A stretch of 18,046 nt of DNA. Origin: a virus (taxonomy: Duplodnaviria > Heunggongvirae > Uroviricota > Caudoviricetes). Below are positions 1 through 14,184 of this stretch, piece after piece. A program made the translations under genes and the position numbers. Below the pieces are notes generated by a model. That model made no database searches. It was not told where the DNA came from and was given only the letters and a program-made list of their open reading frames with translations. Numbering within the stretch: the first letter of the stretch is position 1; each line of letters starts with the position of its first letter. The stretch spans positions 1 to 18,046 of IMG/VR virus record IMGVR_UViG_2802429220_000008. The stretch is one strand, 5' to 3'.

Positions 1-415
1 ACAATTCCTGTGCGCTAATAACCATATCAACGGTGATGTTTTCACATGTGTCGAACTTAACCATGACAGCGTTCTGTACTTCAGGGGCCAGCTTGTCAAA
101 AGTGACGTTCATCGGATCTGATTCAGTCTCAACCGGGACAAAGGAAGCAGACTCCTCATCCCAGCGGTTTTCCTGCATATATTCAGCATCCCAGGAATCT
201 AGGGCAGGGCGGGGTATACCGGGTTTATCCTCGCAGACAAGAAATTTATAAGCGCAGTCCTGAGCAGCCGGATAATGTTCCAGGAATTGCCAGTGAAATT
301 TTGCGCGGGCGCGACGTTCATCACCGGCTTCAATGGCAGTGGCTACAGCGACGGCACCTTCTTCCTTTATTGCCTGTTCGTCCGGAATGGCGGCGCAAAT
401 AAAGACTTTACTCAT
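1..415 (-). CDS. Hypothetical acidic prophage early protein, partial (C-terminus lies beyond window start)
   Basis: Manual translation of minus strand from ATG at 415..413 (MSKVFICAAIPDEQAIKEEG...) stays open to position 1; GAGG about 11 nt upstream. Absent from the ORF track because it has no in-window stop. Confidence 0.55.
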   Translation of the reverse strand, partial: MSKVFICAAIPDEQAIKEEGAVAVATAIEAGDERRARAKFHWQFLEHYPAAQDCAYKFLVCEDKPGIPRPALDSWDAEYMQENRWDEESASFVPVETESDPMNVTFDKLAPEVQNAVMVKFDTCENITVDMVISAQEL

Positions 416-510
416 TTTGTTTTAACCTCATTACAGATTTCAGGGTGAACGAATCCCTGCCATTGCTGGCATTTTTAATCCGTTGGTATGGTGTTAATAT
501 GGCTGGAGGG

Positions 511-699
511 TTATCCAGCCGGTGTTTCGTTATTCAGGTACAGCGATACTTTTTTTAGCGGGAGGCATTCACCAGAAATTTTTTGCTCGTCTCTTGCCTG
601 GAGGCAGGATTCTTTACTTGCATAAATTCCGGTAATCACATTCTGTGATTCACCCGTTATAAGAAAAACCGTCATCATCAGTGCAAATGCTGAAGTCAT
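511..699 (-). CDS. Small protein with hydrophobic N-terminus, YdfD-like (Qin prophage lysis protein family)
   Basis: 62 aa MTSAFALMMTVFLITGE...EQKISGECLP...ETPAG; ATGA start/stop overlap with upstream dicB-like gene; resemblance to YdfD is from memory. Confidence 0.55.
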   Translation of the reverse strand: MTSAFALMMTVFLITGESQNVITGIYASKESCLQARDEQKISGECLPLKKVSLYLNNETPAG

Positions 700-884
700 T
701 GACGTTCTCCGAAAATACCAAGTTCAAGAAGAGCAATTCGGGAAAGTATGGAATTATCATTGAGCAGATAAGGCTCATATTTCCTCATATTAATGGCATC
801 TTCAGTAAACTCCCGGTTACTGAGCAGAACACCAATATCAAAACAACCTTCAGACGTATTAACGTTTGGTAATAACGTTTCCAT
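696..884 (-). CDS. dicB: DicB-like cell division inhibitor (MinC-dependent FtsZ-ring inhibitor)
   Basis: 62 aa METLLPNVNTSEGCFDIGV...FTEDAINMRK matches remembered DicB N-terminus (MKTLLPNVNTSEGCFEIGV...); GAGGA 8 nt upstream of ATG; same length as DicB. Confidence 0.75.
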   Translation of the reverse strand: METLLPNVNTSEGCFDIGVLLSNREFTEDAINMRKYEPYLLNDNSILSRIALLELGIFGERQ

Positions 885-1062
885 TATCGCGTCCTCAACA
901 ATGAATTTTGTGATGCAGTGCCTGGTGCCTCCAGGTGACGTTAACCAGTTAACAATTAACGCCGGATTAGTTGATGCTCGTTACGCCCGTAAAATACCGC
1001 CTTACTGCTTTAACTGTTCCGCGTGCGCATAGCCGCATTCACCGCATCACAAAATTCACTTT

Positions 1063-1110
1063 AAAAAGGGCGGATATCCGTTTCCGCCGAATCACCAGAA
1101 AAGTGATAAC
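1063..1110 (-). ncRNA. dicF: Candidate DicF-like sRNA ending at an intrinsic terminator about 180 nt upstream of dicB
   Basis: Minus strand reads ttttctggtgattcggcggaaacggatatccgcccttttt: 6-bp stem ggcgga/tccgcc, 8-nt loop, U-tract; the downstream stretch aaagtgaattttgtgatgcggtgaatgcgg matches my memory of the dicF-dicB spacer. 5' end not determinable from sequence. Confidence 0.35.
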
Positions 1111-1403
1111 AGAGGGCGTTGCAGCGGGGTTGTCACTTAAGCGTATGGTCAACCTGACAACCCGGTGTCCTCAGCGGGGAAGGAATAACCCCGCCATACT
1201 TACCGCCGCGCCATTTCGCGGATTGCCACAACCGGAAGCGCACGGTCGAATTAAATTTAACGACTACCTACAGAGAGACGAACTTCGCCGTGCGCTTTCG
1301 CGTTATGCCCTGACTTTTCAGGGATATATCCTTTTCAGTAAACTGTCAGTGCCGGATTCTTATCCGTGTCCGGCGCACGCACTCTACCTCACCTGTGAAT
1401 AAA

Positions 1404-1790
1404 TTAATGATTAATTGATATTTTGTTGTTTGATTCAACTTTCCCATCGGATGTGTGATGCTTTAAATCACAGGAATTAATACTGCTTGCTGTAAAATGA
1501 TTTTCAAGGGGAGCTATTCGAATCCCTTTCTTTTTCATTAACAAGCCAAATCCTTTATTAATGATGTCCATTAATTCCAGGAAGTATTTTTCATGTAAAT
1601 CCTGGTTATCAGAGAGCTGCTTCTCTTCGCACAGACCGATAAAGGCACGACGCACGTTACCGGATATAGTATCGATGGTTTCTTTTTCTACAGTACTCAG
1701 GTCAAGAGTCGCCAGTTGAGAGCGAACCACATTCGATGCCATTTCCTGGAATGGTACTGGTAAATCTTTAAATTCCATCGTCAACCTCAT
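1404..1790 (-). CDS. Hypothetical early-operon protein (possibly an intact YdfB/YdfC-like gene)
   Basis: 128-aa ORF with ATGA overlap to the upstream YdfA-like gene; position between ydfA-like and dicF-like elements as in the Qin dicB operon. Confidence 0.6.
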   Translation of the reverse strand: MRLTMEFKDLPVPFQEMASNVVRSQLATLDLSTVEKETIDTISGNVRRAFIGLCEEKQLSDNQDLHEKYFLELMDIINKGFGLLMKKKGIRIAPLENHFTASSINSCDLKHHTSDGKVESNNKISINH

Positions 1791-1942
1791 CAGTCAGTGT
1801 TTCTGGTTAACCAGCGACGCTCGCCAGCTTCAGTTTTAAACGTTTTGCTTCTGGTATACGTCATCGCGGTGAACGTACCGTCCTGGTTGGGGAACACACC
1901 ACATACCAGAGATTCGTTGTTGCCAAGATCGATAGTATCCAT
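1790..1942 (-). CDS. YdfA-like small protein (DUF1391-type)
   Basis: 50 aa MDTIDLGNNESLVCGVFPNQDGTFTAMTYTRSKTFKTEAGERRWLTRNTD; GAGG 5 nt upstream of internal ATG at 1942 (track ORF 1790..2020 starts further upstream without an RBS). Confidence 0.6.
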   Translation of the reverse strand: MDTIDLGNNESLVCGVFPNQDGTFTAMTYTRSKTFKTEAGERRWLTRNTD

Positions 1943-2118
1943 GCTGACCTCATTTCCCCTTAACGCCGGGGTAGCGGAACAAAAACCTGCTGCATAGTTA
2001 AAGTTGAACCCTGCCGTCATGTTCTTACGCCTCGGGCTGGCTACTTAACCCCTGACCACTGCCGGGTAACTCGAAGTATTTCCCTGCGTTCTGTGGGGCG
2101 TGGTGGGGTAGTGGAAAT

Positions 2119-2148
2119 AATCTACAATTAAAAACTGTTTTGTGTCAA
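2119..2148 (-). promoter_or_regulatory. Candidate leftward early promoter (PL-like) embedded in the operator palindrome
   Basis: On minus strand: -35 TTGACA (2148..2143), 18-bp spacer, -10 TAGATT (2124..2119); faces the ydfA-like/dicB operon. Confidence 0.4.
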
Positions 2149-2160
2149 CAGTTTTTAATT
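2126..2160. promoter_or_regulatory. Operator palindrome (OL-like): aattaaaaactgtt-ttgtgtc-aacagtttttaatt
   Basis: Perfect 14-bp inverted arms around a 7-bp centre; same half-site (AAAAACTGT-N9-ACAGTTTTT) as the palindrome at 3161-3195 on the other side of the repressor operon. Confidence 0.65.
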
Positions 2161-2171
2161 GTTGTATTGGG

Positions 2172-2197
2172 CAAAAAAACTCCCTCGAATGAGGGAG
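2172..2197 (-). terminator. Intrinsic terminator ending the repressor-antitoxin-toxin operon
   Basis: Stem ctccctc/gagggag with loop gaat; on the minus strand it is followed by a 7-8 nt U-tract; lies 18 bp past the toxin stop. Confidence 0.6.
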
Positions 2198-2214
2198 TGT
2201 GAAAATTGTTCAGT

Positions 2215-2502
2215 TCAGATAGGGAAGGGAAATTGTCGGCGGGCATGCACAATATTTGCAATTTCAATGCTTGAAGCTGCTACTCGGTACAAAACGATAT
2301 AATTAGGGTGAACCACAATTTCCCGCAAACCGGATACTCGATCACTTGGCGGATATAGATATGGATGCTCAGAGAGGGCTAAAACAGACGTTTCAATCCG
2401 TATTTTTAGTCTGCGTGCTGCAGGAATATTTTCCTTAGCAATATAGGCTACGATCTGACGCAAATCATCGCGAGCAGATGGTAGCCACAAAATGGGTAAC
2501 AT
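2215..2502 (-). CDS. parE: ParE/RelE-superfamily type II toxin (ParE-like)
   Basis: 95 aa with typical ParE features (LWLPSARDDL, GLREIVVHPNYIVLYRV, IANIVHARR); TAATG stop/start overlap with the upstream antitoxin gene. Confidence 0.85.
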   Translation of the reverse strand: MLPILWLPSARDDLRQIVAYIAKENIPAARRLKIRIETSVLALSEHPYLYPPSDRVSGLREIVVHPNYIVLYRVAASSIEIANIVHARRQFPFPI

Positions 2503-2693
2503 TACTCGCTCCTGTTAGTTACAGCAATTTGAGCAATAAGATTCTCCATTTCAGCCATTACCTCATCATGTGGAATTGAGGGACGAGGGTCAGCAAGGCT
2601 TGACGCCACTTTAGCGCGTAACCATTCGTTGTAACTGTTTTCTTGTTCGGTAGTTTCGAATTCTGAAACTATCGGAGAAAGGGCTGTACTCAT
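2502..2693 (-). CDS. Small antitoxin paired with ParE (PaaA-like, 63 aa)
   Basis: 63-aa acidic ORF immediately upstream of and overlapping the ParE toxin; size and context match PaaA-type antitoxins of the paaR-paaA-parE three-component modules (from memory). Confidence 0.75.
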   Translation of the reverse strand: MSTALSPIVSEFETTEQENSYNEWLRAKVASSLADPRPSIPHDEVMAEMENLIAQIAVTNRSE

Positions 2694-2720
2694 GGCATAA
2701 CTCCTCTTCTTGTACTGTGG

Positions 2721-3122
2721 TCACGCCCGGCGGCTTTTTTGTGCCGCCAACCACCGGGCAATGGTTTCTTCCATTGATTTTTTCTTGTCTTTGATTTCTT
2801 GAAGCATTTTTTCTTGGTCTTCCTCTGGAAACGCACTAAAAGCCTGGAGCAGTTCGCGTTGACGAGGACCAATTTTCATCGTGTCAGGGGTGAAAATTTG
2901 CTCCCCCTCTTCAGGAGGCAATAAAAACCAATGCAATGGATGCCCTGTAACCTCAACCAGTTTATCCAAACTTGAGGCTTTAGGTGTAGCCTTACCGCTG
3001 ACCCATTGTTGAACAGTTTGTTGTGTCACACCAATTCTACGGGCAAGCTCAGCCTGGCTCCATCCAGTTTCCTGAAGAAGCTTGCTGATTCTGTACATAG
3101 ATACTTCTAGGGCGTTCATCAT
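2721..3122 (-). CDS. Prophage repressor, HTH_XRE type without a LexA-like peptidase domain (DicA/PaaR-like)
   Basis: 133 aa; N-terminal HTH (ISKLLQETGWSQAELARRIGVTQQTVQQWVSG), C-terminal SPRQRELLQAFSAFPEEDQEKM similar in style to DicA; divergent from the cro-like gene; operators on both sides. Confidence 0.8.
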   Translation of the reverse strand: MMNALEVSMYRISKLLQETGWSQAELARRIGVTQQTVQQWVSGKATPKASSLDKLVEVTGHPLHWFLLPPEEGEQIFTPDTMKIGPRQRELLQAFSAFPEEDQEKMLQEIKDKKKSMEETIARWLAAQKSRRA

Positions 3123-3160
3123 TATTCAATTTTACAGGTAAATACTGTTAAAAGCATCAC

Positions 3161-3195
3161 AATAAAAAACTGTTGATTGTGTACAGTTTTTTATT
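3161..3195. promoter_or_regulatory. Operator palindrome (OR-like): aataaaaaactgt-tgattgtgt-acagttttttatt
   Basis: Perfect 13-bp inverted arms in the repressor/cro-like intergenic region; same half-site and spacing as 2126-2160; candidate -10 TATAGT at 3208-3213 just downstream. Confidence 0.65.
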
Positions 3196-3231
3196 GTAGG
3201 CTTTGCTTATAGTTTTTTAGAGGAGAGCAAA

Positions 3232-3504
3232 ATGCTAGATAGCACTCGCGAAAAAATTAGGCAGAAATACACTCAAGCTGAAATAGGTCGTTATATGGGG
3301 GTCGCTCAACAGACAGTTTGGCAATGGTTTAGCTTTGACGTTCCCCCAAAGCAGGTAATTCCGTTATGTCAGCTAATGAAGTGGGAAGTTACCCCGCATG
3401 AAATTCGCCCTGATATTTATCCTAACCCAACCGACGGTTTACCTGTTGGATTCAAGGTTAACACATCAAATGCACCGGAGTTGATTCATGAAAATCAAGC
3501 ATGA
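3232..3504 (+). CDS. Cro-like regulator, YdaS family
   Basis: 90 aa; HTH-like AEIGRYMGVAQQTVWQWF and the YdaS-type motif TPHEIRPDIYPNP; AGGAGAG RBS; divergent from repressor. Confidence 0.75.
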   Translation: MLDSTREKIRQKYTQAEIGRYMGVAQQTVWQWFSFDVPPKQVIPLCQLMKWEVTPHEIRPDIYPNPTDGLPVGFKVNTSNAPELIHENQA

Positions 3505-3913
3505 ACACATCCGCATGGCGATGAATGCCTGGGCGCGTCCTGATGGCGAAAAAGTTCCAGTAGCTGGAATAACCCAGGCTTATTTTGAGTTGGGTATGAC
3601 GTTTCCTGAACTGTATGACGACAGCCATCCGGAAGCCCTGTCTCGTAATACCCAGAAAATTTTCCGCTGGGTAGAAAAAGACACCCCTGATGCGGTTAAA
3701 AAAATTCAGGCGTTGTTACCGGCGATCGAAAAAGCAATGCCGCCTCCACTGGTGGCCCGAATGCGCAGCCACAGTTCGGAATATCACCGGGAGCTTGTCG
3801 AGCGACGGGAGCGCCTGGTGAAAGATATCGATGAGTTTGTTGCGGCAGCGATCGTGTTGTTCGATCAGATGAATCGTGGTGGTCCGGCGGGAAATGCCGT
3901 GGTGGCGCATTGA
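3488..3913 (+). CDS. YdaT-family protein (CII-like regulator / toxic when derepressed)
   Basis: 141 aa starting MKIKHEHI, which matches my memory of YdaT; follows the YdaS-like gene with a 17-nt overlap. Confidence 0.7.
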   Translation: MKIKHEHIRMAMNAWARPDGEKVPVAGITQAYFELGMTFPELYDDSHPEALSRNTQKIFRWVEKDTPDAVKKIQALLPAIEKAMPPPLVARMRSHSSEYHRELVERRERLVKDIDEFVAAAIVLFDQMNRGGPAGNAVVAH

Positions 3914-3933
3914 TAACGTGTTCTGGGGGGGGG

Positions 3934-4899
3934 ATGAAGCTCCTTTTTGCTGAACGTCCGCTGGTTATAAACACGCAGCTGGCGATGAAAATTGGTCTGA
4001 ACGAAGCCATCGTGTTGCAGCAGTTGCATTACTGGTTGAGAGATACCGGTTCCGGCATGGAATGTGATGGTGTTCGCTGGATTTATAACACAACAGAACA
4101 ATGGCTGGAGCAGTTCCCGTTCTGGTCAGAGTCAACGTTAAAACGCGCATTTGCAAGTCTGAAAACGCTGGGGCTTTTGCGTTGCGAAAAGCTCAATAAA
4201 TCAAAGCGTGATATGACTAATTTTTACACGATTAATTACGAGAGCGAGCTTTTAAATGGTGGCAAAGTGAGCGAATCCATCAGGTCAAAATGCGCTGCTC
4301 CATCAGGTCAGAATGACACGATGGAAGGGGCCAAAATGGCACGTTCCATTGGTTCAAAACGACTCAATGTCATCGGGTCAAAATGGCCTGATGATCTTAC
4401 AGAGAATACAACAGAGATTACTACAGAGAATAAAAACACTTCTCGTCCGGAAGCTTCGCAACCGGACCCGCAGACGGTTGAACAGGATTTTTTAACCCGA
4501 CACCCTGACGCGGTTGTGTTCAGTGCAAAAAAACGCCAGTGGGGCAACCAGGAAGATTTGGCGTGTGCGCAGTGGATCTGGGGACGAATCGTGAGTCTTT
4601 ACGAGCAGGCCGCCAGCGATGATGGCGAGATTTCGCGACCGAAAGAACCCAACTGGACCGCATGGGCCAACGACGTGCGCACAATGCGGATGCTGGATGG
4701 CAGAACTCACAGACAAATTTGTGAAATGTTTGGTCGGGCGCAGCGGGATCCATTCTGGGTAAAAAATATCATGAGTCCGTCAAAGCTTCGCGAAAAATGG
4801 GATGAACTGGTTATCCGCCTGGGGCGTTCGTCTGTACAGCGTTGCGTGAATCATATTTCTGAGCCGGATACCGAAATTCCGCCGGGGTTCAGGGGGTAA
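3934..4899 (+). CDS. Replication initiator (lambda O-like / YdaU-like) containing the origin
   Basis: N-terminal domain LVINTQLAMKIGLNEAIVLQQLHYWL; internal iteron array plus AT-rich tract; start chosen at ATG 3934 after a G-rich tract (track start 3910 is TTG). Confidence 0.75.
   Translation: MKLLFAERPLVINTQLAMKIGLNEAIVLQQLHYWLRDTGSGMECDGVRWIYNTTEQWLEQFPFWSESTLKRAFASLKTLGLLRCEKLNKSKRDMTNFYTINYESELLNGGKVSESIRSKCAAPSGQNDTMEGAKMARSIGSKRLNVIGSKWPDDLTENTTEITTENKNTSRPEASQPDPQTVEQDFLTRHPDAVVFSAKKRQWGNQEDLACAQWIWGRIVSLYEQAASDDGEISRPKEPNWTAWANDVRTMRMLDGRTHRQICEMFGRAQRDPFWVKNIMSPSKLREKWDELVIRLGRSSVQRCVNHISEPDTEIPPGFRG
4276..4386. repeat. Five iterons at 23-24 bp spacing (candidate replication origin inside the initiator gene)
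   Basis: Core ggtcaaaatg at 4283, ggtcagaatg at 4306, ggccaaaatg at 4329, gttcaaaacg at 4352, ggtcaaaatg at 4376, each preceded by tccatca-like; followed by AT-rich acagagaata repeats at about 4395-4440. Confidence 0.7.
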
Positions 4900-4905
4900 C
4901 GGGCC

Positions 4906-5652
4906 ATGAAAAATATCGCGACAGGTGGTGTTCTTGAGCGTATCCGTAAGCTGACCCCGCAGCATGTAATCGCGCCGTACCGGACAGTGGACGAGTGGCG
5001 CGAGTGGCAACTGGCAGAAGGGCGAAAACGTAGCGAGGAGATCAACCGCCAGAATCGCCAGTTGCGGGTGGAAAAAATCCTGAATCGTTCGGGCATCCAG
5101 CCTCTGCACAGCAAATGCTCGTTTGCGAATTATCAGGTGCAGAACGACGGGCAAAAACATGCGCTGAGCCAGGCAAAATCCATCGCTGACGAACTGATGA
5201 CAGGGTGCACGAATTTTGTGTTCAGCGGTAAGCCGGGTACCGGAAAGAACCACCTTGCAGCCGCCATTGGCAATCATCTTCTGGCGAAAGGTCGCAGCGT
5301 GATTGTGATAACGGTGGCTGATGTGATGCTGGCGTTACACAACAGCTACGACAACAAAAACTCAGGCGAAAAATTTTTACAGGGGTTGTGTGATGTTGAC
5401 CTGCTTGTCCTGGATGAAATCGGAATGCAGCGGGATACGCGCAACGAGCAGGTCACACTGAACCAGATAGTCGACCGCAGAACGGCTTCGATGCGTAGTG
5501 TCGGAATGCTGACGAACCTGAACCACGTAGCGATGAGTACGCTTCTTGGCGAGCGTGTGATGGACCGCATGGTCATGAACGGTGGTCGCTGGGTGAATTT
5601 TAACTGGGAGAGCTGGCGTTCGAATGTCAGACACCTGAGGGTTGTGAAGTAA
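4906..5652 (+). CDS. dnaC: DnaC-like helicase loader (IstB-like AAA+ ATPase)
   Basis: 248 aa; Walker A GKPGTGKNHLAAAIG, Walker B DLLVLDEIG; near-colinear with remembered E. coli DnaC (MKN..., RSGI.PLH..CSF.NY, GMLTN.N, LGERVMDRM). Confidence 0.9.
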   Translation: MKNIATGGVLERIRKLTPQHVIAPYRTVDEWREWQLAEGRKRSEEINRQNRQLRVEKILNRSGIQPLHSKCSFANYQVQNDGQKHALSQAKSIADELMTGCTNFVFSGKPGTGKNHLAAAIGNHLLAKGRSVIVITVADVMLALHNSYDNKNSGEKFLQGLCDVDLLVLDEIGMQRDTRNEQVTLNQIVDRRTASMRSVGMLTNLNHVAMSTLLGERVMDRMVMNGGRWVNFNWESWRSNVRHLRVVK

Positions 5653-5673
5653 TTTTGTCCGGAGGAAATTTTA

Positions 5674-6444
5674 ATGGAAACCGTTTTTGACGCACTGAAA
5701 GCAATGGGAAAAGCCACATCGGTAGAACTGGCCGCGCGACTTGATATCAGTCGTGAAGAGGTTCTCAACGAGCTGTGGGAACTCAAAAGAAATGGCGTCG
5801 TTGATAAAACTGGTCACACCTGGTTTCTGGCTGGCGAAGGTGAATCCCTGGTAACCGAAGAGCGGCCAGTAAAATCTGAAGCACAGGATATGCTGACCGG
5901 GGAGGTCGAACAAAAAGTTACCGCAGACATGATGATTGAGTTTATCGGTCAGGATGGGGCTAAAACGTGTGAGGAACTGGCGGGTAAGTTCGGCATCAGT
6001 ACTCGCAAGGTTGCTTCCACGCTGGCGGTGGTAACTGCAACGGGGCGGCTGGCACGCGTTAATCAGAGCGGTAAATTTCGTTACTGCATGCCGGGCGGTA
6101 ATTTACCAGCAGAGCCGAAAGCAGCATCGGTAACGGAAAATGATGGTAAGGCCTTTCCTCAGCCAGCAGGTGTTGCGTTACCAGTCCGGGAAGCCGCAAC
6201 ACAGGAAGAAATTAAAACAGAAACTGTGGCGGACATTGTGCAGCCGTTGCTATCGTTTACCGAAACGCAAGCAGATGAGCTGATTTTTCCGTCCCTGCGC
6301 AGGGCAAACCTGGCGCTGCGCAGGGCGAAAAGTGATGTTCAGAAGTGGGAGCGAGTCTGCGCCGCGCTGCGGGAGCTGAACAAGCACCGGGATATTGTTC
6401 GACAGATTACTGATTCTTCCCGCCGTGTTGTATCGGAAAAGTGA
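5674..6444 (+). CDS. Hypothetical prophage protein with two tandem winged-helix-like segments
   Basis: 256 aa; GGAGG RBS 8 nt upstream; two similar segments ([30 protein letters not shown] and [31 protein letters not shown]). Confidence 0.65.
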
Positions 6445-6459
6445 TAGCCGGAGGCGCTT

Positions 6460-6855
6460 ATGGCGAAACCTTTTACACACGAACAGCGTGAAGAACTGAA
6501 GGCCCGAATTATCGGGCTGGTACGCAAAAATGAACGCATGACGATATCACAACTGGAGAGAGCGACGGGAGCAGGCTGGCATTCAGTCAGACGTTGCCTT
6601 GTGGATGTACTGGCTTGTGGCGATTTATACATGCCCGGTAAATACGGTGTTTTTACATCAGAACAGGTGTATCGCGTATGGCGTAAGGCAGCGGAGAAAG
6701 CAACCGACCAGACATTGATTCGAAAGTTACCAGACGGAGAAATACGCCGCTACGACAGACAACAGAACATAATCTGTGGCGAGTGCCGGAAGAGTGAAGT
6801 TATGCTGCGTGTACTGGCGTTCTATCAGGGCAATTTTCAGGAGGCGGTACTGTGA
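6460..6855 (+). CDS. Hypothetical prophage protein
   Basis: 131 aa; GGAGG RBS 6 nt upstream of ATG; ends in a 4-nt overlap with the next ORF. Confidence 0.6.
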   Translation: MAKPFTHEQREELKARIIGLVRKNERMTISQLERATGAGWHSVRRCLVDVLACGDLYMPGKYGVFTSEQVYRVWRKAAEKATDQTLIRKLPDGEIRRYDRQQNIICGECRKSEVMLRVLAFYQGNFQEAVL

Positions 6856-6911
6856 GTGAATTAGCTATCAGGCTTCAATTGTCGCTGGCATTCGCATCAA
6901 AGGAGAATGAG

Positions 6912-7496
6912 ATGATCACTTTTACAAAAGAGCAGTTAATCAGTCATGTTAGTGAAAATGTAAAGGCGATGAAATTTGCAGTAAAACAGACAGTATTCAA
7001 AAATTCTCTCGAGGCAATTGAGTTGGATTTAGCACTGGCCCTTGTTGCTCAGGCTTCGCTGGAAGCAGAGCCCGTGCTTTATATGAATCGATTTACCGGA
7101 AAGACATTCTCACTGGAAGAGCAACCCGGTGCTGATAAGGAACCGGAAATATACGTGCCGCTATATGCTGCCCCGCCAGACAGCGCCGCCATGCTTCAGG
7201 CTGGAAACTTTCGGGAAAATAAGGGTTCGTCAACCAATAATTTTCGGGAAATCTCGGAAACGTCAACCAACTATCCGGTAACTCCGGATGGTTGGATAAG
7301 CTGTAGTGAGCGAATGCCGGATGATGGTCAGCACGTAATTATTTTATGTGATGGCGCATTCGTTCTTTATGCGCAATATCGAGACGGTGAGTTTTTTGAT
7401 GTAGTCCGTAATGGTGATGAATTTTTCGAAACACAGAGCCGCAATGTAACCGACTGGATGCCGCTACCAGAACCGCCGCAGGAGGTGCGCCAATGA
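6912..7496 (+). CDS. DUF551-domain phage protein
   Basis: C-terminal DGWISCSERMPDDGQHVIILCDG...WMPLPEPP is DUF551-like; start placed at ATG 6912 after AAGGAG (track start 6852 is GTG without RBS). Confidence 0.65.
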   Translation: MITFTKEQLISHVSENVKAMKFAVKQTVFKNSLEAIELDLALALVAQASLEAEPVLYMNRFTGKTFSLEEQPGADKEPEIYVPLYAAPPDSAAMLQAGNFRENKGSSTNNFREISETSTNYPVTPDGWISCSERMPDDGQHVIILCDGAFVLYAQYRDGEFFDVVRNGDEFFETQSRNVTDWMPLPEPPQEVRQ

Positions 7497-7576
7497 TCTG
7501 GCCTGAAGCCTTTGCAATTACAGGCGTTGCTATAGCTATTGATTTTTTAGTATATGTTATTTGTCGGTGGGGGTAA
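7493..7576 (+). CDS. Small hydrophobic peptide (27 aa)
   Basis: MIWPEAFAITGVAIAIDFLVYVICRWG; GGAGGTG 5 nt upstream; ATGA overlap with the DUF551 gene stop. Below the track size cut-off. Confidence 0.45.
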   Translation: MIWPEAFAITGVAIAIDFLVYVICRWG

Positions 7577-7611
7577 AAACGTTCGCCGGGATTCACACCA
7601 AAGGAGGGAAT

Positions 7612-7716
7612 ATGTCGGATGATATTTCACTGGCAATGGAAGGTGCTCTGGCTGTTATTGCTGTTGTGGGCGTTTACTGCCTGGTTGTGTTTTTGATGGA
7701 TCGACTAGGGAACTGA
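7612..7716 (+). CDS. Small hydrophobic membrane peptide (34 aa)
   Basis: MSDDISLAMEGALAVIAVVGVYCLVVFLMDRLGN; AAGGAGGG RBS 5 nt upstream. Below the track size cut-off. Confidence 0.5.
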   Translation: MSDDISLAMEGALAVIAVVGVYCLVVFLMDRLGN

Positions 7717-7758
7717 ATTCATTACGATATGGGAATTCCCATATCGGGTAAAAACGGT

Positions 7759-7786
7759 TTGCGGTAAAGCGAGAGTTAAGTAGAAT
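7759..7786 (+). promoter_or_regulatory. Candidate promoter of the hok/mok mRNA
   Basis: -35 TTGCGG (7759-7764), 16-bp spacer, -10 TAGAAT (7781-7786); predicted 5' leader begins with gcgggtgcttgagg, complementary to the 3' end of the transcript. Confidence 0.45.
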
Positions 7787-7849
7787 TGCTGCGGGTGCTT
7801 GAGGCTGTCTGCCTCGGGCATGCCACCGTAAGGCAGACAGAGAAAAGCC

Positions 7850-7915
7850 CCAGTTAACATTACGCGTCCTGCAAGACGCCTAACATTAATCTGAGGCCAA
7901 TTTCATGCTAGACAT
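7850..7915 (-). ncRNA. Predicted Sok-like antisense RNA region (boundaries uncertain)
   Basis: Inferred from hok-family organisation; candidate minus-strand promoter -35 TTGCCT (7948..7943), 17-bp spacer, -10 TAACCT (7925..7920) would give an RNA antisense to the mok start; no clean terminator found. Confidence 0.25.
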
Positions 7916-8117
7916 ATGTAGGTTAGCCTCTTACGCGCCGAAAGGCAAGGAGAAGCAGGCTATGAAGCAGCAAAAGGCGATGTTAATCGCCCTGATCGTC
8001 ATCTGTATCACCGTCATAGTGACGGCACTGGTAACGAGGAAAGACCTCTGCGAGGTACGAATCCGAACCGGCCAGACGGAGGTCGCTGTCTTCACAGCTT
8101 ACGAACCTGAGGAGTAA
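7905..8117 (+). CDS. Mok-like reading frame (in-frame leader encompassing hok)
   Basis: 70-aa ORF MLDICRLASYAPKGKEKQAMKQQK... with GAGG 8 nt upstream; same frame as hok, resembling the arrangement remembered for MokC/HokC. Confidence 0.5.
   Translation: MLDICRLASYAPKGKEKQAMKQQKAMLIALIVICITVIVTALVTRKDLCEVRIRTGQTEVAVFTAYEPEE
7962..8117 (+). CDS. hok: Hok/Gef-family type I toxin (HokD/RelF-like, 51 aa)
   Basis: MKQQKAMLIALIVICITVIVTALVTRKDLCEVRIRTGQTEVAVFTAYEPEE: single TM helix plus conserved TRKDLCE...REVA.F.AYE motif. Confidence 0.9.
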   Translation: MKQQKAMLIALIVICITVIVTALVTRKDLCEVRIRTGQTEVAVFTAYEPEE

Positions 8118-8185
8118 GAGACCTGGCGAGGGAGAAATCCCTCGCCACCTCTGATGAATCAGGCATCCTCAACGCACCCGCACTT

Positions 8186-8212
8186 AACCCGCTTCGGCGG
8201 GTTTTGTTTTTT
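8186..8212 (+). terminator. Intrinsic terminator of the hok transcript
   Basis: Stem aacccgc/gcgggtt, loop ttcg, followed by ttgtttttt; sits directly after the fbi-like element at 8167-8181. Confidence 0.7.
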
Positions 8213-8284
8213 CCTGGCATTCTGGTTTACAATTCGCACGCCAGCCTGAACAACTGGCACCTGCTGCGCCAGCAGAGACAACCG

Positions 8285-8563
8285 ATGGCGCACGATACCA
8301 AATTATACAATTCTGATGATTCTGCCGTCTTTGCCAGCAGGCGCGGACGGTGTTTTCACGCATTCAAATCTGACTGGTACCAGCATCCCCCATGCACTGA
8401 AGAACAGGCCGAATGGCTCATTCAGTGTTACCGCAGGCGCGGATGCGAGGTTAAAAAAGCCCTTAGCCTCGACTACCGTCACTGGATAATCTCCGTCAGG
8501 CTCCCTTACTCCGAACGGCCACCGCGTCCGTCCCGCACATTCCAGCAACGGATCTGGAGGTAA
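8285..8563 (+). CDS. Hypothetical protein (position equivalent to rem in Qin); start uncertain
   Basis: ORF 8204..8563 in track; ATG at 8285 avoids overlap with the hok terminator; weak RBS; Cys/Arg-rich product. Confidence 0.4.
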   Translation: MAHDTKLYNSDDSAVFASRRGRCFHAFKSDWYQHPPCTEEQAEWLIQCYRRRGCEVKKALSLDYRHWIISVRLPYSERPPRPSRTFQQRIWR

Positions 8564-8564
8564 T

Positions 8565-9614
8565 GTGCGGGTATTACTTCGACCTGTTCTGGTACCGGAA
8601 CTCGGTCTGGTTATCGTTAAGCCAGGCCGTGAATCAATGTCAGCATTCCATAACGGCAGAATACTGGTGGAGCCGGAACCAAAAAGCATGCGAGCTCTGC
8701 CGTCCGGGGTTGTACCTGCCGTTCACCAGCCGCTGGCGGAAGATAAATCACTACTGCCATTTTTCAGCGATGAGCGGGTGAGCCGTGCTGCGGGTGGCGC
8801 TGGTGCACTGTCTGACTGGTTATTACGTCACGTGAAATCCTGCCAGTGGCTACACGGTGATTATCATCACAGCGAAACCGTCATTCACCGTTACGGTACC
8901 GGCGCAATGGTGTTGTGCTGGCACTGCGACAACCAGCTGCGTGACCAGACATCCGAATCACTCGAGCAACTTGCTCATCAAAACCTGTCAGCATGGATGA
9001 TTGACGTCATCGGTCACGCAATAAGCGGTACGCAGGAGCGTGAATTATCTCTGGCTGAATTATCCTGGTGGGCGGTCCGCAATCAGGTGGCGGACGCGCT
9101 ACCGGAAGCGGTATTACGTCGTTCGCTGGGGTTGCGTGCGGAAAAAATCCGCTCCATGTACCGTGAAAGCGACATCGTACCGGGAGAGCAGACCGCCACC
9201 AGCATACTGAAACAGCGCACAAAAAATCTTGCGCCGCTGCCTCACGCCCACCAGCAACAGAACCCACCACAGGAAAAGACGGTGGTCAGCATTGCCGTTG
9301 ATCCTGAGTCTCCGGAATCTTTCATGAAACGACCTAAACGTCGCCGCTGGGTTAACGAGAAATACACTCGCTGGGTGAAGACACAGCCGTGTGCGTGTTG
9401 TGGTAAGCCAGCCGACGATCCCCATCACCTGATTGGTCATGGTCAGGGCGGAATGGGGACAAAATCTCACGATATTTTCACGCTACCGCTGTGTCGGGAG
9501 CATCATAACGAGCTTCATGCGGATCCGCTGGCGTTCGAAGAAAAGCATGGTTCTCAGGTTGATTTAATTTTTCGTTTTCTTGATCACGCCTTTGCAACCG
9601 GTGTGCTTGGGTAA
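8565..9614 (+). CDS. DUF968-domain protein (YdfU-like)
   Basis: 349 aa; C-terminal Cys/His-rich motif CACCGKPADDPHHLIGHGQGGMGTKSHD...LCREHHNELH; GGAGG just upstream of GTG start at 8565. Confidence 0.75.
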   Translation: MRVLLRPVLVPELGLVIVKPGRESMSAFHNGRILVEPEPKSMRALPSGVVPAVHQPLAEDKSLLPFFSDERVSRAAGGAGALSDWLLRHVKSCQWLHGDYHHSETVIHRYGTGAMVLCWHCDNQLRDQTSESLEQLAHQNLSAWMIDVIGHAISGTQERELSLAELSWWAVRNQVADALPEAVLRRSLGLRAEKIRSMYRESDIVPGEQTATSILKQRTKNLAPLPHAHQQQNPPQEKTVVSIAVDPESPESFMKRPKRRRWVNEKYTRWVKTQPCACCGKPADDPHHLIGHGQGGMGTKSHDIFTLPLCREHHNELHADPLAFEEKHGSQVDLIFRFLDHAFATGVLG

Positions 9615-9627
9615 AAGGGGGGTATTG

Positions 9628-9990
9628 ATGTGTATAGAGTTTGTTTTGCCTTACCCGCCGACGGTGAATACTTACTGGCGACGTCGTGGCAGCACATATT
9701 TTGTATCAAAAGCCGGGGAGCGTTATCGCCGGGCAGTGGCGTTTATTGTTCGCCAGCAGCAGTTGAAATTAAGCCTGTCCGGACGGCTGGCAATAAAAAT
9801 TATTGCAGAGCCACCGGATAAGCGCCGCCGTGACCTGGACAATATTCTGAAAGCACCGCTGGATGCGCTGACGCACGCGGGGTTGTTAATGGACGATGAA
9901 CAGTTTGATGAAATCAATATTGTACGTGGTCAGCCAGTATCTGGTGGACGGCTGGAAATAAGAATTACAGAGGTGGGTGTGCATGAATAA
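9628..9990 (+). CDS. rusA: RusA Holliday junction resolvase
   Basis: 120 aa from ATG 9628: LPYPPTVNTYW...RRRDLDNILKAPLDALTHAGLLMDDEQ...GGRLEIRITE, colinear with E. coli RusA. Confidence 0.9.
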   Translation: MCIEFVLPYPPTVNTYWRRRGSTYFVSKAGERYRRAVAFIVRQQQLKLSLSGRLAIKIIAEPPDKRRRDLDNILKAPLDALTHAGLLMDDEQFDEINIVRGQPVSGGRLEIRITEVGVHE

Positions 9991-10672
9991 CCAGTATTTA
10001 CAGTTTGTTCGTGAGCAACTCATGATTGCCACTGCAGATCTCAGTGGGTCGACAAAAGGCCAGCTGGAAGCCTGGCAGGAAAATGCCCTGTTCGATACAG
10101 GGCGTTACAGACGCAAAAAAATTCGTTACCGCGATGAGGTAACTGGAAAAATGATCACGCGGGATAATCCCCCGATCCAGGGTAAACAATCACTGGCGAA
10201 AGGCTCATCAATTGCGCTGGTCAGTCCTGTTGAGTTTGCAACATCATCGTGGCGGCGTGCCCTTCTGGAACTGGAAGAACATCAGAAGGCGTGGTTGTTG
10301 TGGTGTTATGGCGGAAACATTTGCTGGGAGCATCAGATCGCGATAACGCAGTGGGTGTGGAGTGAATTTAAAACTCAGTCCGGCTCCAGAAAAATTGCAG
10401 TGAAAACGCTGGAGCGTGTGAAGAAGTTGATCTGGCTGGCGGCACAGGATGTCAGAGGATGGGTTACCGGGTGTGAGGTCTACCAGAGACAGGAGCTTGC
10501 CAGACTGTGTGGAGTTAAGCCTGATAACTGGAGCCATAATTATGCGAACTACTGGCGTGAGATGTGCGATATTTTTAAGCGCCTCGATAGAGAATCCTTG
10601 ATTTGCTCCGTGAAAATAAGAGCGCAACAAAAAGCGACCTTTTCACGACGAGATATTGCAAAAGTCAATTAA
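9983..10672 (+). CDS. Late-gene antiterminator Q-like protein (Qin QuuQ / phage 82-type), assigned mainly by position
   Basis: 229 aa directly after rusA and before a short terminated region; start ATG 9983 overlaps the rusA stop with GAGG upstream; no sequence-level confirmation. Confidence 0.5.
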   Translation: MNNQYLQFVREQLMIATADLSGSTKGQLEAWQENALFDTGRYRRKKIRYRDEVTGKMITRDNPPIQGKQSLAKGSSIALVSPVEFATSSWRRALLELEEHQKAWLLWCYGGNICWEHQIAITQWVWSEFKTQSGSRKIAVKTLERVKKLIWLAAQDVRGWVTGCEVYQRQELARLCGVKPDNWSHNYANYWREMCDIFKRLDRESLICSVKIRAQQKATFSRRDIAKVN

Positions 10673-10732
10673 ATCGCGTATGTTTCGTATAAATCTGATA
10701 TTTTGCCGATTTTGTACGCGATGGCAAAGTAA

Positions 10733-10760
10733 GAAAAAACCACCGCTAGGTGGTTTTTTT
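10733..10760 (+). terminator. Intrinsic terminator about 60 bp after the Q-like gene (tR'-like candidate)
   Basis: A-tract, stem ccacc/ggtgg with loop gcta, then 7 Ts; candidate promoter elements TTGCAA (10656-10661) and TATGTT (10679-10684) upstream. Confidence 0.6.
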
Positions 10761-10883
10761 ATGTCCGAAAATCTCGTCAGTACAGTAAACGCGCTGGTGG
10801 TGGTGAATACCGGTCTTTCAGCTTGCTGGCTTTTTTGACAAGAGTTATTGGTGTGTCACGTTAACCGGAAAAGGGAAAAAGAC

Positions 10884-11081
10884 ATGCTGAAACAGCAGGA
10901 TATGACCGAAACCGCCAGAGTGGTGTTTAATGAATTAAGCGTCACTGAACCGGCGACAGTCGGGGAGATTGCGCAGAATACTTATCTTTCACGTGAACGC
11001 TGCCAGTTAATACTGACCCAGCTTGTTATGGCGGGGCTGGCAGACTATCAGTTCGGTTGTTACAGACGCCTTCAGTCCTGA
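10884..11081 (+). CDS. Small winged-helix-like protein (65 aa)
   Basis: MLKQQDMTETARVVFNELSVTEPATVGEIAQNTYLSRERCQLILTQLVMAGLADYQF; start moved to ATG 10884; followed by a terminator. Confidence 0.5.
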   Translation: MLKQQDMTETARVVFNELSVTEPATVGEIAQNTYLSRERCQLILTQLVMAGLADYQFGCYRRLQS

Positions 11082-11091
11082 AGGCTTTTTT
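11068..11091 (+). terminator. Intrinsic terminator
   Basis: Stem gccttcag/ctgaaggc around loop tc, then tttttt; overlaps the stop codon of the preceding small gene. Confidence 0.6.
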
Positions 11092-11232
11092 ATTTGTGGT
11101 AAATGGGCGGCTGGTGGGTGTTAGGGGCACTCACCAGCCATCTGCTCATGCGTCCGGATCACAAGCAAACCTCAGGCCCATCTGCTTTGCGCAAAAGCAG
11201 AATGAGCCTATCAGAGACAGGCTTAATGATCC

Positions 11233-12291
11233 ATGCTTAATACTGTAAAAATATCCAGTTGTGAGTTAATCAACGCCGACTGCCTGGAATTTATCCGGTC
11301 GTTACCCGAAAATTCTGTTGACCTGATAGTCACGGACCCGCCGTACTTTAAAGTGAAGCCTGAGGGCTGGGATAACCAGTGGAAGGGCGACGATGATTAC
11401 CTGAAGTGGCTGGACCAGTGTCTTGCGCAGTTCTGGCGGGTGCTGAAACCTGCCGGAAGTCTTTACCTGTTCTGTGGCCATCGCCTGGCATCTGATATCG
11501 AAATCATGATGCGTGAACGCTTCAGTGTGCTGAACCATATTATCTGGGCGAAGCCGTCCGGACGCTGGAACGGGTGCAACAAGGAAAGCCTGCGGGCGTA
11601 TTTTCCGGCAACAGAGCGCATTCTGTTCGCGGAACATTATCAGGGGCCGTATCGTCCGAAAGATGCCGGGTATGAGGCGAAGGGCAGGGCACTGAAACAG
11701 CATGTGATGGCCCCGCTGATTGCTTACTTTCGTGATGCGCGCGCTACCCTGGGGATAACGGCAAAACAGATTGTGGATGCCACAGGAAAGAAAAACATGG
11801 TGTCGCACTGGTTCAGTGCCAGCCAGTGGCAGTTACCGAACGAGGATGATTACAGAAAACTTCAGGTGCTGTTTGCCCGGGTGGCAGAAGAGAAACATCA
11901 GCGGGGTGAACTGGAAAAGCCACATCACCAACTGGTCAGCACATACAGTGAGCTGAACCGGCAGTATGCCAGCCTGCTGGAAGAGTACAAATCACTGCGG
12001 CGTTATTTTTCCGTATCGGCAGCCGTTCCTTATACGGATGTCTGGACGCACAAGCCTGTGCAGTATTATCCGGGCAAACATCCCTGTGAAAAACCGGCAG
12101 ATATGTTGCGGCAAATGATTACCGCCAGCAGTCGTCCGGGTGACCTGGTTGCAGATTTCTTCATGGGGTCCGGTTCGACAGTCAAAGCAGCGATGGCGCT
12201 GGGGCGTCGTGCAATTGGTGTCGAGCTGGAGGCTGAACGTTTTGAGCAGACCGCAAGGGATGTACAGAATTTAATCAGAAAGAGAGAGTGA
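11233..12291 (+). CDS. Orphan DNA methyltransferase (N6-adenine or N4-cytosine, DPPY motif)
   Basis: 352 aa; DLIVTDPPYF near the N-terminus and FFMGSGST near the C-terminus; no adjacent restriction endonuclease ORF. Confidence 0.8.
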   Translation: MLNTVKISSCELINADCLEFIRSLPENSVDLIVTDPPYFKVKPEGWDNQWKGDDDYLKWLDQCLAQFWRVLKPAGSLYLFCGHRLASDIEIMMRERFSVLNHIIWAKPSGRWNGCNKESLRAYFPATERILFAEHYQGPYRPKDAGYEAKGRALKQHVMAPLIAYFRDARATLGITAKQIVDATGKKNMVSHWFSASQWQLPNEDDYRKLQVLFARVAEEKHQRGELEKPHHQLVSTYSELNRQYASLLEEYKSLRRYFSVSAAVPYTDVWTHKPVQYYPGKHPCEKPADMLRQMITASSRPGDLVADFFMGSGSTVKAAMALGRRAIGVELEAERFEQTARDVQNLIRKRE

Positions 12292-12331
12292 TATTGCTGA
12301 ATTTATTCTGTAACGTTATCATTATGTTATC

Positions 12332-12407
12332 GGCCCTTTAGCTCAGTGGTGAGAGCGAGCGACTCATAATCGCCAGGTCGCTGGTTCAAATCCAGCAAGG
12401 GCCACCA
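12332..12407 (+). tRNA. tRNA with CAU anticodon (Met, or Ile2 if lysidine-modified)
   Basis: Manual fold: acceptor ggccctt/aagggcc, D-arm gctc..gagc, anticodon loop cuCAUaa, T-arm gctgg-ttcaaat-ccagc, 3' ACCA. Confidence 0.85.
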
Positions 12408-12408
12408 A

Positions 12409-12474
12409 CCGCCACTAGCTCATCAGGAAAGAACGTCACCCTGTGCGAGATTCGGAGTCCCCGGTGGCGGTCCA
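12409..12474 (+). other. tRNA-like remnant (perfect acceptor stem and CCA but too short, no canonical T-arm)
   Basis: ccgccac ... gtggcgg followed by tcca, 66 nt overall, sitting between two intact tRNAs where Stx-type phages carry three tRNAs. Confidence 0.35.
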
Positions 12475-12487
12475 TTATCAGCATTAT

Positions 12488-12564
12488 GCGTTGTTAGCTC
12501 AGCCGGACAGAGCAATTGCCTTCTAAGCAATCGGTCACTGGTTCGAATCCAGTACAACGCGCCA
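12488..12564 (+). tRNA. tRNA-Arg (anticodon UCU)
   Basis: Manual fold: acceptor gcgttgt/acaacgc, D-arm gctc..gagc, anticodon stem attgc/gcaat with loop cuUCUaa, T-arm cactg-gttcgaat-ccagt, GCCA end. Confidence 0.85.
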
Positions 12565-12575
12565 TATTTATTTAC

Positions 12576-12617
12576 CTGGCTCGCTTTTGCGGGCCTTTTT
12601 TGTATCTGCGTTACACC
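12576..12617 (+). repeat. Terminator-like element, copy A (ggctcgc-tttt-gcgggcc + ttttttgtatctgcg)
   Basis: Imperfect hairpin plus T-tract directly downstream of tRNA-Arg; about 80 percent identical to 13173-13213. Confidence 0.6.
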
Positions 12618-12653
12618 ATTAACTAATAAATCGAGTGCTTATCAGGAGGCTAT

Positions 12654-12878
12654 GTGAAAAAACTGATGGTGACGATTGGTCCGTTCGAAACAGAAGTTAG
12701 TTTTCGTGTTGTTCAGGGGGAGAGTGTACTTGTTGAAGATGTATTTCATGGAAAATCAACAGGTCCTTATGTAAAAGAATATCTTATCGACGCCACGGAT
12801 GAAAATATTGAGGTGGTGTACGATTCCGTCAATCACCCTGATTTGATCATTAAGGCAAAATTGAAGCCACTTTATTGA
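12654..12878 (+). CDS. Hypothetical small protein (74 aa), AT-rich cargo gene
   Basis: AGGAGG 4 nt upstream of GTG start; MKKLMVTIGPFETEVSFRVVQGESVLVEDVFHGK...; no family recognised. Confidence 0.5.
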   Translation: MKKLMVTIGPFETEVSFRVVQGESVLVEDVFHGKSTGPYVKEYLIDATDENIEVVYDSVNHPDLIIKAKLKPLY

Positions 12879-12930
12879 TCTGACCGGGAGCAATCATAAA
12901 ATATCTCTGGGTACCCACAAGGAGATAAAT

Positions 12931-13140
12931 ATGTTTGTTTCTGAAGTGTTAATGGAAGATAAGGACAACAAAGGATGGGTTAAAGGTTGGGCTGTGGTAA
13001 GAAGCTCGCCCTGGCATCTTGTTGGGGTTTTTGCGACAGAGGAAGACGCAGAAACGGAAGCAAGAAAGATGGGAGATAAGTACGAGGTTCACTATGGCTC
13101 GCATCGAACAGGAAGTGATGATTTTGTCTGGGGGGAGTAA
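12931..13140 (+). CDS. Hypothetical small protein (69 aa)
   Basis: AAGGAG 6 nt upstream of ATG; MFVSEVLMEDKDNKGWVKGWAVVRSSPWHLVGVFATEEDAETEARKMG...; no family recognised. Confidence 0.55.
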   Translation: MFVSEVLMEDKDNKGWVKGWAVVRSSPWHLVGVFATEEDAETEARKMGDKYEVHYGSHRTGSDDFVWGE

Positions 13141-13172
13141 CAGTCGTTTAACCCCAGAATAATCCCGTAACT

Positions 13173-13213
13173 GAGGTCGCTATTGGCGGCCTTTTTTGTA
13201 TCCGCGCCACGCC
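13173..13213 (+). repeat. Terminator-like element, copy B (ggtcgc-tatt-ggcggcc + ttttttgtatccgcg)
   Basis: Second copy of the element at 12576-12617; together they bracket the two small ORFs. Confidence 0.6.
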
Positions 13214-13329
13214 CGGCACATATCAACCACAGAGCCTTTCGGGGGTGAGCTTACGGAGTGGTCAGTGTGACTTTCTCTGTGGGCAGATCGCTCCCGGGCG
13301 TTGGCTCACCCACCCAAAGGAACGTCACG

Positions 13330-14156: not shown

Positions 14157-14184
14157 ATGCCCCTCTCCGGAGGGGCATTTTTAT
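14157..14184 (+). terminator. Intrinsic terminator
   Basis: Perfect 9-bp stem atgcccctc/gaggggcat, loop tccg, then ttttat. Confidence 0.6.

Follow-up and report, generated by a model that had tools for sequence, protein, structure and literature searches.

Positions 4255 to 4467 of an 18,046-nucleotide stretch of viral DNA (IMG/VR record IMGVR_UViG_2802429220_000008, positions 1 to 18,046) are very probably a prophage replication origin bound by the product of the gene in which it lies. The whole stretch is referred to here as the window and all coordinates are those of the window. The origin would be the vegetative (theta-type) origin of a lambda-like Escherichia coli prophage, placed in the linker-coding middle of the initiator gene. 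It occupies nucleotides 322 to 534 of this 966-nucleotide gene, between the parts that code for the N-terminal domain (N-domain), which ends at about amino acid 107, and the C-terminal domain (C-domain). The anatomy of the element consists of an array of iterons, a run of 12-bp repeats (12-mers) and an inverted repeat, as listed below.

4255-4277, plus strand: iteron 0 (degenerate), core CAAAGTG at 4263-4269
4278-4300, plus strand: iteron 1, CATCAGGTCAAAATGCGCTGCTC, found by repeat and motif search
4301-4323, plus strand: iteron 2, CATCAGGTCAGAATGACACGATG, found by repeat and motif search
4324-4346, plus strand: iteron 3, GAAGGGGCCAAAATGGCACGTTC, found by repeat and motif search
4347-4370, plus strand: iteron 4, CATTGGTTCAAAACGACTCAATGT, found by sequence reading and motif search
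4371-4393, plus strand: iteron 5, CATCGGGTCAAAATGGCCTGATG, the best dyad, with arms CATCGGGTCA and TGGCCTGATG, found as inverted repeats I1 and I2 and by motif search
4399-4434, plus strand: three 12-bp repeats ACAGAGAWTACW, a proposed DNA-unwinding element, from motif count, stability and relatives
4445-4467, plus strand: inverted repeat GTCCGG-(11 nt)-CCGGAC, to the right of the 12-mers, with covariation in relatives

The iteron array comprised six head-to-tail 23-bp units between 4255 and 4393, with successive spacings of 23, 23, 23, 23 and 24 bp. The core of the units was CAAAWTG and the dyad arms were GGT and ACC. The units follow one another in phase as direct repeats, and each contains a dyad of its own (seen as inverted repeats I1 and I2). 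The five clear units started at 4278, 4301, 4324, 4347 and 4371. Their GGTCAAAATG-like cores on the plus strand were at 4283, 4306, 4329, 4352 and 4376, with 0, 1, 1, 2 and 0 mismatches, respectively. The 23-bp period was recovered both by a direct-repeat search (family D3) and by Tandem Repeats Finder. Across the whole window GGTCAAAATG at up to two mismatches had 26 matches compared to 22 expected, which is not above chance. The phased chain of five at 22 to 25 bp spacing was compared to a maximum of two in 1000 Markov-1 random sequences, and the significance of the array therefore rests on phased clustering only. Iteron 0 was a weaker in-phase sixth copy located 23 bp upstream of iteron 1. 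It was picked up by Tandem Repeats Finder, by repeat family D3 and by a criterion defined on other phages, and its counterpart was well preserved (GAGGTCAAAGTGA) in relatives L002 and L003.

The 12-mer copies were ACAGAGAATAC at 4399, ACAGAGATTAC at 4411 and ACAGAGAATAA at 4423, three matches compared to 0.41 expected. The 38 nucleotides from 4398 to 4435 had a GC content of 29% and were 71% purine on the plus strand. This was the least stable 38-mer in the gene (-42.3 kcal/mol, the 99.6th percentile of the window), giving a low-stability, strand-asymmetric tract that adjoins the iterons. An earlier reading of the sequence without database searches (the sequence-only reading) had described five iterons at a strict 23-24 bp period, followed by an AT-rich tract with acagagaata repeats, in a five-iteron origin at 4276-4450. 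The period and the tract were both confirmed. The count is six and not five. The element starts earlier, at iteron 0 (4255), and ends later, with the inverted repeat (4467).

Matches to DnaA boxes in the window were as numerous as expected (36 compared to 36) and none within the origin was perfect, giving no evidence for direct DnaA involvement. No sigma-70-like site was found in 3000-5000 under a simple consensus, and no terminator was found in the origin. There was no Rfam match in 3900-4900, so the element is not a known RNA element. A GATC (Dam) site was present at 4393-4396, exactly where the last iteron gives way to the 12-mers (GATGATCTTACAGAG). It was retained in relatives from E. coli, Citrobacter, Klebsiella and Xenorhabdus, and not in those from Pantoea. 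A second low-stability stretch (-43.2 kcal/mol, 98.8th percentile, GC content about 0.28) was seen at 4192-4240, close to the left end of the iteron array. It encodes a conserved NFYTINY motif.

The repeats act at the DNA level. The six cores started in codon phases 2, 1, 0, 2, 1 and 1, covering all three phases, and the same core word was translated as SKC, GQN, AKM and SKR or SKW. Column identity at codon positions 1, 2 and 3 was compared in 13 Enterobacterales sequences. It was.89,.95 and.68 in the N-domain, the normal pattern of coding sequence, compared to.89,.90 and.87 in the iterons and.98,.85 and.99 in the 12-mers. For the Thr-Glu pairs of the 12-mer zone (about 75 species) ACA was used in 89% and GAG in 88%, compared to 21% and 54% where these genes code for the N-domain. 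The sequence-only reading had named an amino acid repeat with synonymous variation as the explanation that would undo its claim. The periodicity would then be a by-product of a repeated motif (IGSK or SGQN) in a disordered linker with no DNA function. Short peptides do recur in the translation (SIRSKC, IGSKR, IGSKW) and the peptide LTENTTEITTE is conserved in relatives, but a reading frame cannot survive a 23-bp period, and the phases of the cores differ accordingly. Third positions were conserved like first and second positions in the iterons and above second positions in the 12-mers, the synonymous bias towards ACA-GAG was strong, and the iteron arms co-vary as reverse complements. An explanation by amino acid repeats is hardly conceivable and was ruled out by the frame and codon-position data.

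The initiator was assigned to phrog_391 ('replication initiation O-like', E value 9.8e-96) and its ATG at 3934 corresponds to the annotated starts of relatives. The gene and its parts are as follows.

3934-4899, plus strand: O-like replication initiator gene, 321 amino acids, containing the origin (phrog_391)
3934-4254, plus strand: N-terminal winged-helix domain, amino acids 1-107, the proposed iteron-binding module (predicted fold)
4132-4134, plus strand: Ser67 codon, candidate specificity residue at the start of the predicted recognition helix (amino acids 66-78), from co-variation with iteron base -1
4480-4815, plus strand: region homologous to the lambda O C-terminal domain (BLASTP)
4840-4896, plus strand: C-terminal tail RCVNHISEPDTEIPPGFRG, similar to the ends of DnaT and YdaU

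The N-domain was predicted to be a winged helix, with a fold closest to RepA_N (plasmid initiator) and DnaD, and by predicted fold it falls in the RepA_N/DnaD class. Pfam gave no RepA_N or DnaD match for the initiator, and family membership was not found at the sequence level. Pfam and NCBIfam contained no family for the N-domain or the lambda-like C-domain, the sole match being a weak and irrelevant one to Slx4. A sequence search of the PDB matched the DnaT-like tail only. In the staphylococcal relative Sa96 a DnaB_2 domain was confined to the C-terminal part.

The layout of the element was conserved across phyla. The N-terminal 107 amino acids of the initiator were used as a tblastn query and the N-domain was found in phages of Klebsiella, Erwinia, Pantoea, Hafnia, Providencia, Pseudomonas, Vibrio, Staphylococcus, Bacillus, Listeria, Lactobacillus and others. 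In the loci that were read, two to six CAAAWTG-core iterons and then ACAGAGA-type repeats followed the N-domain at the same place. Bacillus phage vB_BhaS-171 had GGTCAAAATGACC twice and GGGACAAATTGTCC, Staphylococcus phage 96 had GGGACAAAATGGCCC, Erwinia phage PEp14 had five copies of GAGGGCAAATTGCCCT and Hafnia phage yong2 had GGGACAAATTGTCC. A scan of genome contigs with one genome per species gave 80 loci, of which 79 were long enough to score. A scan of viral contigs returned only loci of 93-100% identity and was uninformative on divergence.

The 79 species with scored loci spanned Enterobacterales, Pseudomonas, Campylobacterales, Staphylococcus, Bacillus and Lactobacillaceae. In the 270 nucleotides after the N-domain exact CAAAWTG occurred at 6.8 per kb compared to 0.21 per kb elsewhere (33-fold), and AYAGAGA at 7.0 per kb compared to 0.075 per kb elsewhere (94-fold). 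Iteron spacing was 22-24 bp in nearly all loci and the 12-mer period was 12 in 110 of 118 intervals. The distance from the last detected iteron core to the first 12-mer was 17-20 bp in 36 of 56 loci. Several of the remaining gaps exceeded 17-20 bp by a multiple of 23, which would be the result of overlooking a weak iteron. The sequence-only reading had taken the five copies and the iteron sequence to define the replication specificity of this phage. Neither claim held. The number of iterons varied from two to six among relatives and is six in known Stx phages, so the count does not set specificity, and the core is common to E. coli, Bacillus and Staphylococcus phages.

Specificity appears instead to be located in the arm base adjacent to the core and in residue 67 of the initiator, judging from co-variation. 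The flanking arms were mutual reverse complements and were lineage-specific. They were GGT/ACC in 15 loci including the window, GGG/CCC in seven and GGA/TCC in five, with GTG/CAC, TGC/GCA, GAT/ATC and GCT/AGC as further types. The consensus -1 and +1 bases were complementary in 55 of 65 loci. Residue 67 was the alignment column most informative on the arm base (mutual information 1.33 bits, the next column 0.74). Iteron base -1 was T in 28 of the 34 loci with Ser at this residue, G in all 22 with Asp and A in all six with Lys or Arg. When loci were clustered at 70% identity, eight clusters had Ser with T, nine had Asp with G and none was crossed (Fisher approximately 4e-5, for a correlation without tree-based correction). 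The switch of residue 67 together with the arm base was also seen inside one 91%-identical Pantoea pair. Such co-variation is what direct read-out of the iterons by the N-domain would predict.

The inverted repeat was evaluated in relatives, where it has the form 10+3+10, GTCMGGTTGC nnn GCAACCMGAC. Its inner pairs switched jointly (TTGC/GCAA, TTTC/GAAA, TTCC/GGAA, GGCTCA/TGAGCC). Across 29 distinct sequences pair 12/18 was GC in 18, CG in seven, UA in four and unpaired in none. Covariation in the same sequences was 0.144 compared to 0.037 and was exceeded by none of 500 shuffles; the outer six pairs were fixed by the selection pattern and carry no weight in this value. The inverted repeat at 4445-4467 lies beyond the weak tract, and lambda has a palindrome in the corresponding position.

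A module boundary was found within the element. The O-like gene of phage SfIV has another N-domain and other iterons (CCGTCAAAATCTGAC-like, with a 15-18 bp period), has no ACAGAGA repeats, and becomes nearly the same as the window lineage once AAAACTTCTCGTCCGGA is reached. The O genes of SfII and SfIV, both with another N-domain and other iterons, match the window only over positions 4430-4808 (75% DNA identity in the C-terminal region), and phage mEp460_4F5 joins a window-type N-module to an SfIV-type C-module. There is a mosaic joint precisely between the 12-mers and the inverted repeat. The combination in SfIV of a different N-domain and different iterons with the same C-module shows that inheritance links the iterons and 12-mers to the N-domain, and the inverted repeat to the C-domain. 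This co-inheritance and the residue-67 co-variation together give indirect support for binding of the iterons by the cognate initiator. The SfIV iterons were located at 1350-1500 of L175 (Shigella phage) and are translated as DPSKSDASKSDPSKFDASKS.

The same mosaic joint, with the stretch shared by SfII and SfIV and the mEp460_4F5 hybrid, would also fit 12-mers and an inverted repeat that serve as linkers promoting recombination of phage modules and are no part of an origin. This is highly improbable. The 12-mers are conserved in phages of Staphylococcus, Campylobacterales and Lactobacillaceae, hosts too distant for regular homologous exchange, and their period and distance from the iterons are fixed. 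Compensatory changes preserve the symmetry of the inverted repeat, which is not required of linkers.

The closest known systems were phage lambda and its Stx-type relatives, the Rac prophage, SPP1 and the RepA_N plasmids. The sequence-only reading had assigned the element to the lambda ori-in-O architecture. This holds for the mid-gene position, the order of elements and the homology of the C-terminal half, and fails for the DNA-binding domain, which is not of the lambda O type. When lambda was compared, iterons, a weak A-rich tract and an inverted repeat were found in the lambda order. The five clear iterons lie at nucleotides 345-460 of 966 in the window gene compared to 349-433 of 900 in lambda O. 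Both origins have dyad iterons with a TCAAAAYG-like centre and a spacing of about 23 bp, the annotated lambda iterons being spaced at 20, 24 and 23 and followed by the A-rich tract and then the palindrome. The C-terminal domain is homologous to that of lambda O (35% identity, E value 9e-28, amino acids 147-294). The alignment starts at amino acid 147, inside the origin stretch, and clear C-domain identity is seen only from about amino acid 200. BLASTP against lambda O found no N-terminal similarity. PF04492 (Phage_rep_O) matched lambda O at 5.7e-36, whereas the window initiator had no match even at an E value of 10. The window has six iterons with GGT/ACC arms compared to four with CCCTC/GAGGG in lambda, and its weak tract is a conserved 12-bp repeat whereas that of lambda is a plain AT-rich stretch. 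The downstream partner is a DnaC/IstB-type AAA+ loader and not the P protein of lambda.

Origins of Stx phages (933W, P27) contain six iterons rather than four (PMC7466680). They are like the window element as six-iteron origins of lambda-like E. coli prophages, and differ in having a lambda-type O and lambda-type iterons compared to another DNA-binding module and iteron sequence in the window. In the Rac module (ydaU-ydaV, oriJ) YdaS-like and YdaT-like genes are followed by genes in the same order as here, and the window has a YdaV-like DnaC-type loader (PRK12377 above cut-off). Rac YdaU is a DUF1376 protein of which only the last 22 amino acids align with the window initiator, both ending in ..IPPGFRG. 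The window initiator is not YdaU-like (DUF1376) and, as YdaU is similar in the tail only, the window origin is not of the Rac type. The RepA_N initiators of plasmids from Gram-positive bacteria (pSK41/pTZ2162 RepA) are among the closest known systems, and RepA_N plasmids are a known instance of the same kind of element. In Bacillus phage SPP1 (G38P/oriL), and as proposed for ORF20 of staphylococcal phage 80alpha, the replisome organiser binds an origin inside its own gene (PMC5499656). The window initiator, unlike SPP1 G38P, had no match to the SPP1-type N-terminal domain of Pfam. Staphylococcal phage 96 belongs to the N-domain family of the window initiator.

From this arrangement we infer iteron binding, unwinding, helicase recruitment and origin firing. 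Dimers of the N-terminal winged helix would bind the six 23-bp dyad iterons, with half-sites GGTC and GACC about one helical turn apart. The recognition helix, including residue 67, would read the arm base adjoining the CAAAWTG core. The resulting nucleoprotein complex would strain the adjacent purine-rich 12-mer array (4399-4434), which would then open. The lambda-O-like C-domain and the DnaT-like tail would bring host DnaB by way of the phage DnaC-like loader, and the inverted repeat at 4445-4467 may be a third origin element. The tail RCVNHISEPDTEIPPGFRG is nearly the same as the final 19 amino acids of E. coli DnaT (RDVNTVSEPDSQIPPGFRG) and also resembles the end of Rac YdaU. The initiator gene, dnaT and ydaU each have dnaC or a dnaC-like gene as their immediate downstream neighbour. 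Relatives that lack a DnaC-like neighbour also end in ..P(A/H)GFR(G/S). The shared ..SEPDTEIPPGFRG tail may be a tail that recruits DnaC/DnaB; how DnaT recruits DnaB/DnaC is stated as unknown in a 2026 paper (PMC13377028).

Several points weigh against an origin of this kind. The N-domain can exist without an in-gene origin, since several Bacillaceae relatives lack both the iterons and the ACAGAGA repeats. The right arms of iterons 0, 1 and 3 are poor in the window. The 12-mer tract is AT-rich only to a moderate degree, and its sequence conservation is stronger than a simple melting region requires. The inverted repeat of the window pairs at eight of the 10 arm positions of relatives (6+6 contiguous). 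No phylogenetic-tree correction entered the residue-67 correlation, and the searchable literature contained no demonstrated initiator binding or origin activity for any family member. In the Bacillaceae loci L142, L146, L148, L152, L154, L158, L164, L167 and L171 the N-domain runs straight into a DnaD-like C-terminal part. The origin of those loci, if any, must be elsewhere.

The repeats could also be initiator-binding sites with a control function only (autoregulation, titration or exclusion of related phages), with replication starting elsewhere. In plasmids, iteron arrays also act in the control of copy number and in incompatibility. Lambda-type phages are reported to be inhibited by cloned fragments of ori-lambda (PMC3349717, PMC4488673). 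Such a role would supplement an origin role and not displace it. The array is tied at a fixed 17-20 bp to a conserved low-stability repeat tract and to an inverted repeat, an arrangement also seen in lambda ori, and no second repeat array or comparable element was found in the rest of the 18-kb window. A control function alone is thus unlikely.

Still less likely is an inactive relic of a defective prophage. The window comes from a mosaic prophage, no complete E. coli genome matched it over more than 81% of its length, and the imperfect state of iterons 0, 1 and 3 would suit a relic. Against this the open reading frame is intact, several complete E. coli genomes carry it with 100% identity, and it is covered to at least 80% in 1794 of 5426 (about one third). 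The same elements are present in records deposited as phage genomes (the module is found, at about 90% identity, in those of HannyBb, mEp460 and PhiR42_1, the last with E. coli ECOR13 as recorded host), and the conservation of synonymous sites indicates ongoing selection.

An active origin of the prophage is the preferred reading. Elements of this kind are textbook knowledge (lambda, SPP1 G38P/oriL, RepA_N plasmids) and the allele is very common. This reading places a prophage origin at 4255-4467 with defined parts, which can help in annotation and in the building or curing of replicons. It is possible, and put forward tentatively, that the window is one case of a phage origin design present across many bacterial phyla. 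The design would combine the winged-helix N-domain, which has no Pfam family, with a fixed layout of 23-bp CAAAWTG dyad iterons followed 17-20 bp later by two to five ACAGAGA 12-mers, to which Enterobacterales add the covarying inverted repeat. The residue-67/arm-base code would largely set replicon specificity. The 12-mers would be recognised by their sequence, either by the initiator or by the loader, and perhaps in single-stranded form like DnaA-trios.

If this is true, two things would be new: a code of one residue and one base pair (67 Ser, Asp or Lys/Arg with T, G or A) for replicon specificity, and 12-mers that are a sequence-specific element and not a passive AT-rich melting region. 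In the loci compared, one cassette of origin and DNA-binding domain is combined with many different C-terminal domains and helicase partners, from phages of Proteobacteria to those of Firmicutes. The tracking of residue 67 and arm base offers a simple testable rule for origin specificity and for incompatibility among co-resident prophages, and the layout offers a search pattern for origins in unannotated phage genomes. The searchable literature, which leaves out much of the older subscription literature so that an earlier description is possible, contained no account of this origin family or its motifs, of the cross-phyla layout conservation or of the residue-67 rule. Literature matches to the motif sequence words were chance primer matches.

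The initiator and its neighbours form the immunity and replication region of a lambda-like E. coli prophage of a common type. The neighbouring genes are as follows.

2721-3122, minus strand: cI-like repressor, upstream of the initiator
3232-3504: YdaS-like Cro, upstream of the initiator
3488-3913: YdaT-like cII-type gene, upstream of the initiator
4906-5652, plus strand: DnaC-like AAA+ helicase loader, partner of the initiator (NCBIfam PRK12377)

The loader starts seven bases downstream of the initiator. It scored 499.5 bits against PRK12377 (cut-off 389) and had an E value of 1e-94 with the DnaC model. Its identity to Rac YdaV was 81% over 248 amino acids. A ParE-family toxin (PF05016, E value 7e-16) and a PaaA2-type antitoxin (PF21217, E value 1e-21) were encoded on the minus strand at 2215-2693, adjoining the cI-like repressor.

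Metagenome-assembled genomes labelled Veillonella parvula, Bacillota bacterium and Collinsella (L097, L098, L161) contained copies with 95-96% identity to the E. coli prophage gene. These are most likely binning contamination.

Further along the window, 7793-7967, 12332-12561, 13988-14250 and 14398-16248 contained a sok antitoxin RNA, two tRNAs, the small RNAs STnc100 and AgvB (anti-GcvB) and a DUF1737/SASA esterase gene. The only Pfam match in the interval from the tRNAs to the esterase was an open reading frame with a TerB domain (13258-13761). The layout of sok, tRNAs, small RNAs and esterase resembles the late region of Stx-type phages.

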